From an uncultured bacterium (GTDB lineage: Bacteria; Omnitrophota; Omnitrophia; Omnitrophales; Aquincolibacteriaceae): a DNA stretch of 64,000 bases. Below, one piece after another: positions 8,174-12,097 of this stretch. The DNA lies in the NCBI GenBank assembly GCA_964434115.1, contig CAYSSX010000009.1:19992-83991 (forward strand), in the 5' to 3' direction. The position numbers and the translations under genes were made by a program. A model generated the notes under the pieces. It worked only from the letters and a program-made list of their open reading frames with translations. It had not been told where the DNA came from and ran no database searches. The number at the start of each line of letters is the position of its first letter. Within the stretch, counting starts at the first letter, position 1.

Positions 8174-8201
8174 TTGATTTCCCGGCCGTTCTGGCTAGAA
8201 T
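8174..8201 (+). promoter_or_regulatory. Sigma-70-type promoter for the groEL-groES-groEL locus (TTGATT-N16-TAGAAT)
   Basis: Hexamers read directly, spaced 16 nt, lying just upstream of the CIRCE operator and about 100 nt before the first groEL. Confidence 0.55.
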
Positions 8202-8210
8202 GAGGCCCTG

Positions 8211-8237
8211 TTAGCACTCGCAAGTTTTGAGTGCCAA
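8211..8237 (+). promoter_or_regulatory. CIRCE operator (HrcA binding site)
   Basis: TTAGCACTC-gcaagtttt-GAGTGCCAA matches the CIRCE consensus TTAGCACTC-N9-GAGTGCTAA with one mismatch. Confidence 0.85.
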
Positions 8238-8302
8238 CCTTGCCCGCCGGTTCTCATTTTCCTAAGCGGTTCATCATTAGACAATAAACAGGAGGTTTTA
8301 CA

Positions 8303-9958
8303 ATGGGTGCAAAGCAGATTCTATTTAGCGAAGAAGCACGTCGCGCGATTCAGCGCGGTGTGGATCAACTCGCAAACGCTGTAAAAGTCACGCTCGGTCC
8401 GAAGGGCCGCAATGTCGTGCTGGACAAAAAGTTCGGCGCCCCGAGCATCACCAAGGACGGCGTTTCCGTTGCCAAGGAAATCGAGCTTGATGAGCCTTAT
8501 GAAAACATGGGCGCTCAGATGGTGAAGGAAGTCGCTTCCAAAACTTCAGACAATGCCGGCGATGGAACAACGACGGCCACGGTTCTCGCGCAGGCGATTT
8601 ACCGCGAAGGTCTTAAGAACGTTACCGCCGGTGCCAATCCGATGGCGCTGAAACGCGGCATTGAAAAAGCCGTTGAAGCCGTCAACATCAAGCTTGGCGA
8701 ACTCTCCAAGCCCATCGGGAAAGATAAAAAAGAAATCGCGCAGGTTGCCGCGATTGCCGCGAATGGCGACACCGAAATTGGAAACCTCATTGCCGAAGCC
8801 ATGGAAAAAGTCGGCAAAGACGGCGTCATCACGGTGGAAGAAGCCAAGAGCACGGCAACAACCCTTGATGTCGTTGAGGGTATGCAGTTTGATCAGGGTT
8901 ACCTCTCTCCGTATTTTGTAACTAATACGGAAAGCATGGAAGCCATCCTCGAAGAACCTTTCGTCCTCATTCACGAGAAAAAAATCTCCGCGATGAAGGA
9001 CCTTCTTCCGGTTCTTGAATCCGCGGCAAAGTCAGGCAAGCCGCTCCTCATCATCGCTGAAGAAGTCGATGGCGAAGCCCTTGCAACCCTCGTGGTCAAC
9101 AAGATCCGCGGAACGCTGAACGTCTGCGCCGTAAAGGCACCTGGCTACGGCGACCGCCGCAAGGCCATGCTGGAAGACATTGCCATCCTCACGGGCGGCA
9201 AGGCCATCACGGAAGACCTTGGCATCAAGCTTGAAAACGTCACGGTGAAAGACCTTGGCCGCGCCAAGCGCATCACGGTGGACAAGGAAAACACCACGAT
9301 CATTGAAGGCGCGGGAAAAAGCGCGGACATCAACGGCCGCGTGGCTCAGATCAAGCGCCAGATCGAGGATACGGATTCCGAATACGACAAGGAAAAGCTT
9401 CAGGAACGCCTCGCGAAGCTTGCGGGCGGCGTAGCGGTCATCAATGTCGGTGCCGCAACGGAAACAGCCATGAAAGAAAAGAAAGACCGTGTTGATGATG
9501 CGCTTCACGCAACGCGCGCGGCCGTGGAAGAAGGCATTGTCCCCGGAGGCGGCGTCGCTTTGATCCGCGCCAGCTCGGCCATTGAAGGCTTGAAGCTGAA
9601 GGGTGATGAGAAGGTCGGCGCTGACATTATCCGCCGTGCCCTTGAAGAGCCTCTTCGCCAGCTTGCCGCAAACGCGGGCGATGAAGGCTCCGTGATCGTT
9701 CAGCGGGTCCTCAGCGAAAAAGGCAACGTGGGCTATGATGCCTCGACCGGCGAGTTCAAAGATCTCGTCGCCGCGGGTATTATTGACCCCAAAAAAGTGA
9801 CGCGCAGCGCGCTTCAGAACGCCGCAAGCGTTTCCGCTCTTCTTCTCACCACGGAAGCATTGATCACCGAAATTCCGAGTGAAGAAGACAAGGCTCCTGC
9901 AATGCCCGGCGGTGGAATGGGCGGCATGGGCGGTATGGGTGGCATGGGCGGTTTTTAA
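8303..9958 (+). CDS. groEL: Chaperonin GroEL (60 kDa), copy 1, with canonical GGM C-terminal tail
   Basis: 551 aa. ATP-binding motifs are present ([12 protein letters not shown]). C-terminus is [18 protein letters not shown]. Confidence 0.95.
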
Positions 9959-10025
9959 TTAGCGCTTAGTTTTTGAATTTCATTTTCAAAATTGTCAAAA
10001 AGACAAATTTAATCAGGAGGTTGTT

Positions 10026-10316
10026 ATGAAAATTCGTCCCTTAGGTGACAGAGTGCTTGTGGAAATTTTGGAAGCCGAAGAAAAAACCAAAGGCGGGATT
10101 ATTCTTCCGGACACAGCCAAAGAAGAAAAGTCTGAAGGCAAGGTCATTTCCGTAGGATCGGGCAAGACGCTGGAATCCGGCAAGGTTCAGCCCATTGAAG
10201 TGAAAAAGGGCGACCGCGTGATTTTCGGCAAATGGGGCGGCGATGATCTTACGATCGAAGGCAAGAAGCACAAGATTCTGAAAGAAAGCGACCTCGTCGC
10301 GGTATACGAAGGTTAA
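10026..10316 (+). CDS. groES: Co-chaperonin GroES
   Basis: 96 aa. MKIRPLGDRVLVE...KGGIILPDTAKEK is a classic GroES. A strong RBS (AGGAGG) lies upstream. Confidence 0.95.
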   Translation: MKIRPLGDRVLVEILEAEEKTKGGIILPDTAKEEKSEGKVISVGSGKTLESGKVQPIEVKKGDRVIFGKWGGDDLTIEGKKHKILKESDLVAVYEG

Positions 10317-10395
10317 AACGTTCCGTTTTAACCGGAGTCCTGAAACTCTTGGGCTTCAACGCTTTTCACAGACTCGTTAACAGGAGAACTCTCAA

Positions 10396-12039
10396 ATGGC
10401 AAAACAACTTGTATTCTCGGAAGAAGCGAGACGGCGCCTGAAACGCGGCGTGGATATTCTCGCCAATACCGTTGGTGTAACGCTCGGACCGCGCGGAAGA
10501 AATGTCATTATCGACCGCAAGTTCGGCGCGCCGACAATCACCAAAGACGGCGTTTCTGTAGCCAAGGAAATCGAACTCAAGGACCCTTATGAAAACATGG
10601 GGGCCCAGATGGTTCGTGAAGTTTCTGAAAAGACTTCAGATGAAGCCGGCGATGGGACCACAACGGCTACAGTCCTTGCGCAGGCCATCATCAATGAAGG
10701 TTTGAAGAATGTCACCGCCGGGGCAAACCCCATGGCGCTCAAACGCGGCATTGATAAGGCAGCAGAAAAGGTTGTTGAAACCGTCAAGTCGCTTTCCAAA
10801 GCCGTCAAGAACAAGCAGGATATTGCAGCGGTCGGAAACATCAGCGCGAATTCCGACACCAGTATCGGCAACCTTCTTGCAGACGCCATTGATAAGGTCG
10901 GCAAAGACGGTGTGATCACGGTCGAAGAATCCAAAACACTCAAGACAGATCTTGAGCTTGTGGAGGGTATGCAGTTTGACCGCGGTTACATTTCCCCGTA
11001 TTTCGTCACGGATTCTGAGCGCATGGAAGTGCACTTCAAGAATCCCTACATTTTCCTTTATGAAAAGAAGATCAGCTCCATCAAGGACCTTGTGCCTGTG
11101 CTGGAAAAAGTGGCCCGTCTCGGCCGCCCTCTTCTGATCATCGCGGAAGATGTGGAAGCTGAAGCCCTTGCAACGCTTGTGGTCAACAAGATCCGCGGCA
11201 CGCTTCAGGTTGCGGCCGTGAAGGCCCCTGGTTTTGGAGACCGCCGCAAGGCCATGATGGAAGATATCGCCATCCTGACCAAAGGGCGCTTCATTTCCGA
11301 AGACCTCGGCATCAAGCTTGAAAATGTTGATACCGATGCCCTGGGTTCCGCCCAAAGCGTTGTGATCGATAAAGACAACACCACGATCATCGGCGGGGCC
11401 GGTTCTCAAAAGGACATTAAATCCCGCTGCGATCAAATTCGCGGCCAGCTTGAAAAGTCTGATTCCCAGTACGACCGTGAAAAATTCCAGGAACGCCTCG
11501 CGAAACTCGCGGGCGGCGTGGCCGTGATCAAGGTCGGAGCGGCGACGGAAATTGAAATGAAGGAAAAGAAGGCGCGCGTGGAAGACGCTCTTCATGCAAC
11601 GCGGGCCGCTGTTGAAGAAGGTATTGTCCCGGGCGGCGGTACAGCGCTTCTGCGCTCCATTGCCAGCCTGGCTTCGTTGAAGCTGAAGGGAGATGAGGCC
11701 ACGGGTGCGGATATTGTCCGCCGCGCTCTGGAAGAACCTGCCCGCCGCATCGCGAAGAATGCCGGCTTTGACGGTTCCGTCATCGTAAAAACCGTTTTGG
11801 AAAGCAAGGAAACCAGCTATGGTTTCAATGCCGACAAAGGGGATTTTGAAGATCTCGTGCAGTCCGGGATCATTGACCCTGCCAAGGTCGTGCGCACCGC
11901 GATCCAAAACGCGGCCAGCATTGCCGGTCTTTTCCTGACCACCGAATGCGTGGTTTCAGAAAAACCGAAGGATGAAGAGGAAGACGGCAAGAAAAAGAAA
12001 AAGCCGAGCTACGCTTCTTCCATGGGTGACGATTACTAG
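10396..12039 (+). CDS. groEL: Chaperonin GroEL, copy 2, with non-canonical charged C-terminal tail
   Basis: 547 aa with all GroEL motifs. C-terminus is [25 protein letters not shown] rather than GGM repeats. Confidence 0.95.
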
Positions 12040-12063
12040 AATCGCATCTGACTTAAAGCAAAA

Positions 12064-12097
12064 GGCCCTTCCGGAATTCCGGAAGGGCCTTTTTTTT
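12064..12097 (+). terminator. Rho-independent terminator after groEL copy 2
   Basis: GGCCCTTCCGG-aatt-CCGGAAGGGCC stem-loop followed by T8. Confidence 0.85.

Follow-up and report, generated by a model that had tools for sequence, protein, structure and literature searches.

The stretch of DNA analysed here (the window; 64 kb, from a member of the candidate phylum Omnitrophota) carries groEL1, groES and groEL2 in that order, all on the + strand, with a promoter and a CIRCE operator 5' of the first gene and a strong terminator 3' of the last. Its features are:

8174..8201, + strand: sigma-70-like promoter, with -35 TTGATT (8174-8179), a 16-nt spacer and -10 TAGAAT (8196-8201); consensus scan and conservation
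8211..8237, + strand: CIRCE operator TTAGCACTC-N9-GAGTGCCAA, 1 mismatch, presumed HrcA binding site
8290..8295, + strand: Shine-Dalgarno AGGAGG of groEL1, read from the sequence
8303..9958, + strand: groEL1, canonical GroEL of 551 aa with a Gly-Met C-terminal tail (nt 9902-9955); ORF, TIGR02348
9959..10025, + strand: groEL1-groES spacer, 67 nt, 27% G+C, weak A/T hairpins only
10015-10020, + strand: Shine-Dalgarno AGGAGG within the groEL1-groES spacer
10026..10316, + strand: groES, the single co-chaperonin, 96 aa; ORF, GroES models
10317..10395, + strand: groES-groEL2 spacer, 79 nt, with a Shine-Dalgarno AGGAG
10396..12039, + strand: groEL2, paralogous GroEL of 547 aa; ORF, TIGR02348
11962..12036, + strand: C-terminal tail of GroEL2, 25 residues, a Lys/Asp/Glu-rich polyampholyte in place of GGM repeats
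12060..12101, + strand: intrinsic terminator, a 15-bp stem with 9 G-C pairs (12060-12093) followed by a T-run

The gene order given in the original prediction, a groEL with a Gly-Met (GGM) tail, then groES, then a second groEL, is borne out by three open reading frames on the + strand whose family scores all exceed the cut-offs. Both GroELs match the NCBIfam GroEL equivalog TIGR02348 over their full length (GroEL1 861.7 bits, GroEL2 860.9 bits; cut-off 582.1), and GroES matches NF001531 at 117.5 bits (cut-off 96) and NF001533 at 114.6 bits (cut-off 99). GroELs of the PDB are matched over residues 2-530 at E about 1e-195 to 1e-229, the core of the window proteins being 65-70% identical to solved GroELs. 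The chlamydial variants GroEL2/GroEL3 (NF038370, NF038369), which are likewise extra GroEL paralogs in a PVC-group lineage, were considered and rejected; with scores of 212-271 bits, where 600 is the cut-off, and with all their catalytic residues in place, the window proteins are not chlamydial variants.

The TTGATT-N16-TAGAAT promoter and the near-consensus CIRCE that had been read upstream of groEL1 were both recovered. Allowing up to 3 mismatches, the 64 kb contain no other CIRCE match, with 0.01 expected by chance; the operator begins 9 nt past the -10 hexamer and would overlap the expected transcription start, so that the operon is presumably repressed by HrcA. The consensus promoter scan found 4 sites against 3.0 expected, so that by its hexamers alone neither the site at 8174-8201 nor one at 9755-9783 is significant; support for the former comes from conservation, since the same -35/-10/CIRCE block (cTTGAy, 16/17 nt, TAnAAT, lying 8-10 nt 5' of CIRCE) recurs in at least 15 Omnitrophota loci. 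Every related locus listed that has intact upstream DNA carries a CIRCE with 0-2 mismatches in the same place. A tblastn search with an approximate B. subtilis HrcA as query gave no convincing hrcA match in the 64-kb window, and none in any related locus or flank covered; one weak window match (E 0.007; 15751-16056, in the ORF 15532-17025) belongs to no Pfam family and was rejected as chance.

The complete layout, promoter-CIRCE-groEL1-groES-groEL2-terminator, is found in at least 10 further distinct loci of Omnitrophota, besides a partial one and a duplicate; those listed are L001, L002, L003, L015, L081, L082, L083 (partial), L085, L161/L162, L163 and L164. The upstream alr-birA-coaX synteny is conserved in related loci as well, and the window GroES is 73-82% identical to the GroES lying between two GroELs there. 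The background for gene order is mostly GroEL/GroES loci of other phyla among the genome and metagenome matches listed; about 140 non-Omnitrophota loci were sampled, and among these matches all read groES-groEL except Ca. Scalindua. The arrangement had been called unusual, which holds against most bacteria but not within Omnitrophota, where it is the norm, and a comparable cluster exists in Planctomycetes. Given that the layout is standard across the phylum, the two-GroEL operon is, judged by gene order, a lineage hallmark of Omnitrophota and not a local oddity. At two Omnitrophota loci (L004, L084) groEL2 is missing beside groEL1 and groES, and two others (L005, L011) have plain groES-groEL with a single GroEL, indicating that GroEL2 is dispensable in some lineages. 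A literature search did not find the groEL-groES-groEL arrangement under that name and returned nothing relevant for groEL in Omnitrophota.

Within the window GroEL1 and GroEL2 are 68% identical, and orthologs of each occur throughout the phylum at 75-88% identity (80-88% for GroEL1 orthologs against the window copy). A neighbour-joining tree separates them, with bootstrap support of 100% for the clade of GroEL2 and 85% for that of GroEL1; they do not group as sisters, and GroEL1 is nested with the single-copy GroELs of other Omnitrophota. A phylogeny had been proposed as the check on recent versus ancient divergence, and the answer is ancient: by their identity, their separate well-supported clades and the phylum-wide orthologs of each, GroEL1 and GroEL2 are ancient paralogs, not products of a recent duplication. 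Between genomes GroEL1 is 83% and GroEL2 74% identical, and all 55 genome pairs show GroEL1 as the better conserved of the two. Twenty-three sites are fixed differently between the clades, and together with the tail these signature residues can distinguish the two for annotation. The database protein P0002 is 100% identical to the window GroEL2.

One CIRCE-controlled transcription unit is the best reading of the locus, based on the single promoter with its CIRCE, the single terminator and the same gene order in the other Omnitrophota loci. Transcription would begin at the one sigma-70-type promoter and stop at the one intrinsic terminator, and HrcA would presumably repress the operon via CIRCE, with derepression upon protein-folding stress; a single transcript, HrcA control and heat induction are thus what we infer from the DNA. 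A strong terminator had been predicted after the last gene only, and the hairpin at 12060-12093 is indeed the sole strong one on the + strand; related loci in which the DNA 3' of groEL2 was read likewise have strong terminators there, L085 having a stem-loop without a following T-run. The further claim that no second CIRCE, promoter or terminator lies between the genes stands, like the rest of the prediction's description of the locus, with one qualification. The 64-kb scan shows no CIRCE between them at up to 3 mismatches, and no terminator-like site was found there on the + strand; the consensus scan does list a promoter-like match, TTCAAA-17-TATTAT at 9755-9783 inside the 3' end of groEL1, at chance level. 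An Rfam scan of 7500-13000 at E up to 1 found no known RNA element in the spacers; matches to Thr_leader (on the terminator) and to a snoRNA model are both sub-threshold and were set aside as chance.

That promoter-like site would fit a locus of two units, with groEL1 under CIRCE and groES-groEL2 expressed apart from it, either through a promoter within the locus or through mRNA processing that leaves a segment with its own stability. The window spacers, at 67 and 79 nt, would be long enough for an unrecognised promoter or processing site, the A+T-rich first spacer contains a weak TTCAAA-17-TTTAAT match seen by eye, and in the relatives L001, L002, L003, L015 and L085 strong G+C-rich hairpins lie between the genes and could modulate read-through. 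We nevertheless consider two units unlikely. Both candidates for an internal promoter, the site at 9755-9783 and the one in the first spacer, were rejected as poorly placed and without conservation: the groEL1-groES spacer holds no conserved promoter, spacer sequences are completely different among related loci, and the weak spacer promoter would initiate at or inside the groES Shine-Dalgarno. Between groES and groEL2, the loci L161, L164, L081 and L082 have spacers of just 4, 11, 23 and 24 nt, too short to hold a promoter of their own; this supports a single transcript, as does the lack of a second CIRCE or of a + strand terminator between the genes.

A Gly-Met-rich C-terminal tail is typical of GroEL/Cpn60 without strictly defining it. 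The second GroEL of the window had been described as lacking Gly-Met repeats and carrying a Lys/Asp/Glu tail instead, and this difference runs through the clades: the GGM tail is present in 119 of 119 GroEL1-clade tails examined and in 0 of 120 GroEL2-clade tails. The latter are about 49% charged (K 26%, S 16%, E 14%) and near-neutral, with a mean net charge of +0.7 across the clade, and are expected to be disordered. They run from a Lys/Glu-rich stretch, which in the window copy includes five consecutive Lys, through a Ser/Ala-rich stretch and a conserved Tyr to a short ending commonly of the type Y-[SA]-G-S-I-[ES], often YSGSIE; a Tyr or Phe lies within the last 8 residues in 116 of 120. The folding machinery is shared by both proteins. 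In an approximate E. coli numbering, checked at D87, Y199, Y203-F204 and D398, the ATP/Mg site (T30-P33, D52, the GDGTTT motif D87-T91, D398, G415, D495) and the apical GroES and substrate contacts (Y199, S201, Y203, F204, L237, L259, V263, V264) show 98-100% conservation in each clade, and both window proteins have them, R452 being conserved to the same degree; at L234, another apical contact, GroEL2 has V or I instead. With every residue for ATP hydrolysis, GroES binding and substrate capture kept, GroEL2 is most likely a working GroES-dependent folding cage.

We therefore regard as probable, though by no means certain, a tricistronic heat-shock operon in which two anciently diverged GroELs share one GroES and GroEL2 has an altered client range. 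GroEL1 would be the general housekeeping chaperonin, in keeping with its Gly-Met tail, its slower evolution and its grouping with the single-copy GroELs of the phylum. In GroEL2 the seven hydrophobic GGM tails of each ring would be replaced by densely charged Lys/Glu/Ser-rich tails, which should alter the chemistry of the cavity floor and with it the set of proteins accepted as clients. On this reading each GroEL would form homo-oligomeric rings of its own, with specialisation for clients. Substrate or localisation specialisation of the paralog had been suggested earlier; the clade-conserved tail type fits a specialised paralog, and the localisation part is not supported, the tail being a soluble polyampholyte.

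The two GroELs might instead co-assemble into hetero-oligomeric rings or tetradecamers as subunits of one machine, like chloroplast Cpn60 alpha/beta. Both genes share one presumed transcript and a single groES in every locus of this type listed, and the ring-contact residues R452, S463, V464, K105 and A109 are conserved in both GroELs; at the position of E461, GroEL2 always has Asp, perhaps as an adaptation of the contact between rings. Mixed rings nonetheless seem quite improbable to us. Bacterial chaperonin paralogs reportedly prefer homo-oligomers (PMC5904260), GroEL1 works alone to judge from L004 and L084, which lack GroEL2 at the locus, and from the single GroEL of L005 and L011, and in each of the 55 genome pairs GroEL2 evolves faster, a pattern not suggestive of obligate partners that co-evolve. 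A bolder version, to which we give about as little credence, makes the charged tail a functional module and the operon an ancient PVC-group invention, with GroEL2 working in mixed rings or its tail serving as a client docking or selectivity element; if true, this would be a bacterial two-subunit chaperonin system analogous to the chloroplast one.

Moonlighting roles have been proposed for some functions of mycobacterial GroEL1. GroEL2 could similarly have ceased to be mainly a folding cage and bind, for instance, nucleic acid or membranes through its Lys-rich tail; the run of five Lys and the high Lys content of the clade's tails would suit such a role, and elsewhere paralogs without GGM have taken on roles particular to their organism (PMC11978752, PMC5904260). 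We hold this to be very unlikely, as the near-neutral tail is a polyampholyte and not basic, strong constraint acts on the residues for catalysis and for contact with GroES and substrate, and groEL2 directly follows groES in a heat-shock operon. A recent origin of either groEL, by duplication or by insertion of a foreign copy, has only the adjacency of two similar genes in its favour and can be virtually discounted given the divergence of the two proteins, their separate clades with orthologs across the phylum, the differently fixed sites, the arrangement conserved in the other loci, and a GC3 that is the same and a strongly biased codon usage that is nearly identical in both genes, a match on which recent horizontal transfer of groEL2 was also rejected.

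Compared with known systems, the operon with two GroELs around one GroES resembles the B. subtilis-type CIRCE/HrcA groES-groEL operon in its sigma-70 promoter, its operator (TTAGCACTC-N9-GAGTGCTAA in that type), its chaperonin genes and its terminator, and differs in having groEL1 instead of groES in first place and a second groEL after groES; the single-copy loci L005 and L011 have exactly the B. subtilis-type layout. It is commonly stated that groES always precedes groEL, and this has to be corrected, since Omnitrophota and some Planctomycetes have the GGM groEL first; certain lineages retain a bare groEL-groES operon. Among bacterial genomes, 20-30% have duplicated chaperonins whose tails diverge, so that the locus is otherwise an ordinary case of duplicated chaperonins, non-GGM paralogs being well known, and the conserved charged tail is its only undescribed detail.

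Multi-chaperonin bacteria retain one GGM paralog, which is more constrained, and their non-GGM paralogs are specialised (PMC11978752, PMC5904260); here too the GGM GroEL1 is the more constrained copy (83%) and GroEL2 (74%) is diverged at its C terminus. The same holds for Mycobacterium GroEL1 (His-rich)/GroEL2 (GGM) and for Myxococcus xanthus GroEL1/GroEL2, in which the copy with the other tail evolves faster. Myxococcus, as here, has a single GroES for both GroELs, and its GroEL without an adjacent groES still requires GroES (PMC5406781); CIRCE regulation, presumably through HrcA, is shared with actinobacteria (PMC11978752, PMC5406781, PMC5904260). In systems of the Mycobacterium and Myxococcus type, however, the second copy usually stands alone, whereas here both GroELs lie in one operon with the GGM copy 5' of groES, and the Lys/Glu/Ser tail class of Omnitrophota is absent from the reviewed classes (His-rich, pattern-less, GGM-like, absent). 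The role of the GroEL C-terminal tail is still debated (PMC11978752). The operon offers a phylum-wide natural experiment on it, with two presumably co-transcribed GroELs and one GroES, in which the most conspicuous difference between GroEL1 and GroEL2 is the tail, hydrophobic Gly-Met repeats versus conserved charged residues, the 23 differing sites lying in the core.

A parallel in gene order comes from Planctomycetes. A cluster in Rhodopirellula baltica, RB8966 (Cpn60)/RB8969 (Cpn10)/RB8970 (GroEL), is similar to judge by its adjacent locus tags, and is heat-induced (PMC2754498). The Ca. Scalindua locus (L061) has the same order as the window, a Gly-Met GroEL, then GroES, then a GroEL without GGM; no CIRCE was found upstream of it. 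Its downstream GroEL carries 7 of the 23 GroEL2 signature residues and falls outside the GroEL2 clade in the neighbour-joining tree, and a protein search with it returned Scalinduaceae only, with no link from Planctomycetes to the GroEL2 clade. The tails of the downstream GroELs of Scalinduaceae are acidic, not Lys-rich, with GGM in 0 of 120, and their ending, V-[AE]-G-S-V-[YF], faintly recalls that of the Omnitrophota GroEL2.

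The + strand carries three groE genes in tandem, and their description in the original prediction, a groEL with Gly-Gly-Met (GGM) tail repeats, a groES and a second groEL with a charged tail, is accurate, with TIGR02348 (the NCBIfam GroEL equivalog) and GroES models matching the respective products.

Features of the groE locus in the window
8174-8201, + strand, promoter TTGATT-16 nt-TAGAAT, 5' of groEL1
8211-8237, + strand, CIRCE TTAGCACTC-N9-GAGTGCCAA, one mismatch
8303-9958, + strand, groEL1, 551 aa, TIGR02348 861.7 bits (cut-off 582)
10026-10316, + strand, groES, 96 aa, GroES models above cut-off
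10396-12039, + strand, groEL2, 547 aa, TIGR02348 860.9 bits (cut-off 582)
12060-12093, + strand, terminator (15-bp stem, 9 G-C pairs, T-run); no other strong terminator on this strand

A strong Shine-Dalgarno sequence precedes each gene, and the 64-kb window holds no further groEL or groES copy. The CIRCE, an inverted-repeat operator presumed to bind HrcA, is the sole match when as many as three mismatches are allowed across the window (0.01 expected); as had been proposed, a single CIRCE lies 5' of groEL1, the 67-nt and 79-nt spacers between the groE genes contain neither a second CIRCE nor a + strand terminator-like site, and a strong terminator follows only the last gene. The hexamer scan returned 4 promoter-like sites against 3.0 expected, one of them within groEL1 (9755-9783), and the promoter hexamers by themselves are not significant; support for the window promoter comes from comparison with related Omnitrophota loci. 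Two antisense ORFs, one of 158 aa opposite groEL1 (9032-9508) and one of 423 aa opposite groEL2 (10636-11907, - strand), are taken as non-coding shadows of the biased sense frame.

The order promoter-CIRCE-groEL1 (GGM)-groES-groEL2 (charged)-terminator recurs in four loci from species-representative genomes (L001, L002, L003 and L015) and in the metagenome loci L081, L082, L083 (contig-truncated) and L085, and contigs with more distant GroEL2 orthologs (L161/L162, L163 and L164) have this layout too. Genes for alanine racemase (alr), the biotin-protein ligase BirA and the type III pantothenate kinase CoaX lie 5' of the operon in the window (5720-8145), and since the same order adjoins groEL1 in the distant contigs L161, L163 and L164 (positions 1-2650), the whole forms a synteny block, alr-birA-coaX-groEL1-groES-groEL2. 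Among the matches listed, the roughly 140 loci from other phyla all read groES-groEL, which bears out the statement that this is the usual order, with the single exception of a Candidatus Scalindua locus (L061). On these comparisons we regard groEL1-groES-groEL2 as the standard Omnitrophota groE locus and not a local anomaly.

A block of the form cTTGAy-16/17 nt-TAnAAT-8 to 10 nt-CIRCE can be aligned gap-free in 15 Omnitrophota loci and reads as a phylogenetic footprint of promoter and operator. The intergenic spacers are conserved in neither sequence nor length, and in several relatives the groES-groEL2 spacer is so short (4, 11, 23 and 24 nt in L161, L164, L081 and L082, respectively) that co-transcription is effectively forced; a strong terminator lies 3' of groEL2 in nearly all loci with downstream sequence read, the stem-loop of L085 being without a T-run. 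Transcription of groES-groEL2 as a separate unit is possible in this window, whose spacers of 67 and 79 nt would admit it, but no candidate signal is conserved and the relatives' spacers leave no room for a promoter. The single-operon reading of the original prediction is well supported by the comparison of loci.

Several relatives depart from this layout. Two Omnitrophota loci (L005 and L011) are plain CIRCE-groES-groEL, and two others (L004, 5986-8100; L084, 1775-3880) carry groEL1-groES, the reverse of the textbook order, with a terminator directly after groES and no groEL2 remnant there. The GroEL1 of the latter two is nearest to the L085 protein; L085 itself has an unusually divergent GroEL2 with histidines in its tail (…KKKKSKSHSH), and together the three look like groEL2 decay and loss within one sublineage. 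Strong G+C-rich hairpins occupy the spacers of L001 (5398-5534, 5826-6000), L002 (5488-5594, 5886-5994), L003, L015 and L085 (3319-3494, 3789-3937); with minimum free energies of -29 to -65 kcal/mol and recurring GTCATTGCGAG…GAAGCAATC-like arms, they look like small inserted repeat elements. L163 has a 76-aa GIY-YIG ORF (4171-4401) between groEL1 and groES; the window spacers contain neither such hairpins nor this ORF.

The cores of both GroELs retain the chaperonin machinery. With positions numbered on an E. coli GroEL reference sequence (numbering verified at D87, Y199, Y203-F204 and D398), the nucleotide site (T30-P33, D52, D87-T91, D398, G415, D495), the apical GroES and substrate contacts (Y199, S201, Y203, F204, L237, L259, V263, V264) and the ring contacts K105 and R452 are 98-100% kept in both clades, and the ring contacts A109 and S463-V464 about 94-100%. 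Fixed states specific to GroEL2 include E79, G140, A146, K216, K297, D461 and V500, position 461 being an inter-ring contact. In every one of 55 genome pairs GroEL1 is better conserved between orthologs than GroEL2, with mean identities between genomes of 83.0% for GroEL1, 74.1% for GroEL2 and 78.2% for GroES.

The tails, defined as the residues after the conserved TTE[C] motif, differ between the clades; the loss of Gly-Met repeats claimed for the second copy extends to all 120 tails sampled from its clade. The window GroEL2 is one of a subgroup whose tails end in acidic and aromatic residues (e.g. …APAYSGGEDY, …SSYSGEDFE), the commonest GroEL2 ending being YSGSIE (56/120).

C-terminal tails of the two GroEL clades
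GGM repeats: GroEL1 119/119; GroEL2 0/120
Composition: GroEL1 G 29%, M 16%, P 15%; GroEL2 K 26%, S 16%, E 14%, D 9%
Charged residues: GroEL1 about 18%; GroEL2 about 49%
Mean net charge: GroEL1 -3.2; GroEL2 +0.7
Tyr/Phe within the last 8 residues: GroEL1 105/119; GroEL2 116/120

Most likely, then, a single HrcA/CIRCE-controlled heat-shock operon would supply two chaperonins and one shared lid, GroES. GroEL1, with its GGM tail, the strongest constraint and orthology to the phylum's single copy, would be the general chaperonin, and GroEL2 is predicted to be a working GroES-dependent cage on whose cavity floor charged polyampholyte tails replace the hydrophobic Gly-Met repeats, so that its client range should shift. 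On this model the genes would share one transcript, depend on HrcA and respond to heat, and the two GroELs would form separate homo-oligomers with different clients; the mechanism is in line with established findings on multiple chaperonins (PMC11978752; PMC5904260; PMC5406781). GroEL1 and GroEL2 might instead form mixed rings, but this is disfavoured by lineages with GroEL1 alone, by the faster evolution of GroEL2 and by the generality of homo-oligomers among bacterial paralogs (PMC5904260). That GroEL2 moonlights through its Lys tail is unlikely, the tail being near-neutral and the catalytic machinery intact.

The original prediction left it to phylogeny to distinguish recent duplicates from ancient paralogs, and the two genes are the latter. 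GroEL1 and GroEL2 share 68% identity, and their closest named database matches are both Candidatus Omnitrophota; ortholog identities are higher (80-88% for GroEL1, 75-82% for GroEL2), so each is nearer its counterparts elsewhere than its neighbour gene. In a neighbour-joining tree (52 GroELs, 533 columns, 100 bootstraps) the downstream copies form a single clade (100% bootstrap) and the upstream copies a separate one (85%), nested with the single-copy GroELs of the plain groES-groEL loci L005 and L011; the two do not pair as sister clades (0% support). They are fixed differently at 23 core positions (at least 90% in each), and the two genes hardly differ in GC3 (0.63 and 0.61) or in codon usage, both being strongly biased. 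From the identities, separate clades, fixed sites and codon usage we infer a paralogy that is ancient, at least phylum-deep. A recently inserted or duplicated first groEL is refuted by the 68% identity, the separate clades and the closer orthologs across the phylum.

At 9 of these 23 signature sites the GroEL2 residue is the one that prevails beyond the PVC group, and GroEL2 could stem from an old duplication, with faster evolution since, or from an old transfer. A plausible route to the locus is tandem duplication to (groES-groEL)x2 and later loss of the leading groES copy, which would leave the CIRCE directly before groEL1; no intermediate of this route was found among the matches listed. 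GroEL2 has a 100%-identical NCBI entry (P0002, on a contig of 93,845 bp) and GroEL1 a best match of 88%, a discrepancy that looks like an effect of the way collections represent the source record, not biology. A GroEL2-type protein of 741 aa (P0001, from a 3,086-bp ENA contig) carries an internal duplication of its apical domain region (residues about 139-343), most likely an assembly artefact rather than a real variant.

The locus belongs to the well-known multiple-chaperonin class. Duplicated groEL occurs in about 20-30% of genomes, with His-rich, pattern-less, GGM-like and absent tails on record (PMC5406781; PMC11978752; PMC5904260); one GGM paralog is always kept, under stronger selection, and non-GGM paralogs diverge in function (PMC11978752; PMC5904260), while stand-alone GroELs still require GroES (PMC5406781). 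By profile models the window GroELs are not of the chlamydial variant type. A literature search on the gene order groEL-groES-groEL gave no match, but annotated planctomycete genomes have such clusters; Rhodopirellula baltica RB8966 (Cpn60), RB8969 (Cpn10) and RB8970 (GroEL), all heat-induced, resemble it by their adjacent locus tags (PMC2754498). The Scalindua locus matches the Omnitrophota order, with GGM and acidic tails on its first and second GroEL; Scalinduaceae downstream copies likewise lack GGM (0/120), and their ending V-[AE]-G-S-V-[YF] is faintly like that of GroEL2, but they carry only 7 of its 23 signature residues and are placed outside its clade, so that a common origin is no more than possible. 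The only features for which we found no description in the literature are the conserved tail class rich in Lys, Glu and Ser and its link, across the phylum, to a groEL-first operon.

Directly 3' of the operon are genes for a divergent polysaccharide deacetylase (PF04748; 12637-13527, + strand) and, converging with it, for a DUF6178 protein of 597 aa (13524-15317, - strand). Further along are a protein of 1083 aa that carries two glycosyltransferase domains of family 2 (17022-20273, + strand), a SulP/STAS sulfate permease (20350-22035, + strand), a sulfate ABC-transporter binding protein (35898-36917, - strand) and a chromate efflux transporter (37173-38336, - strand).
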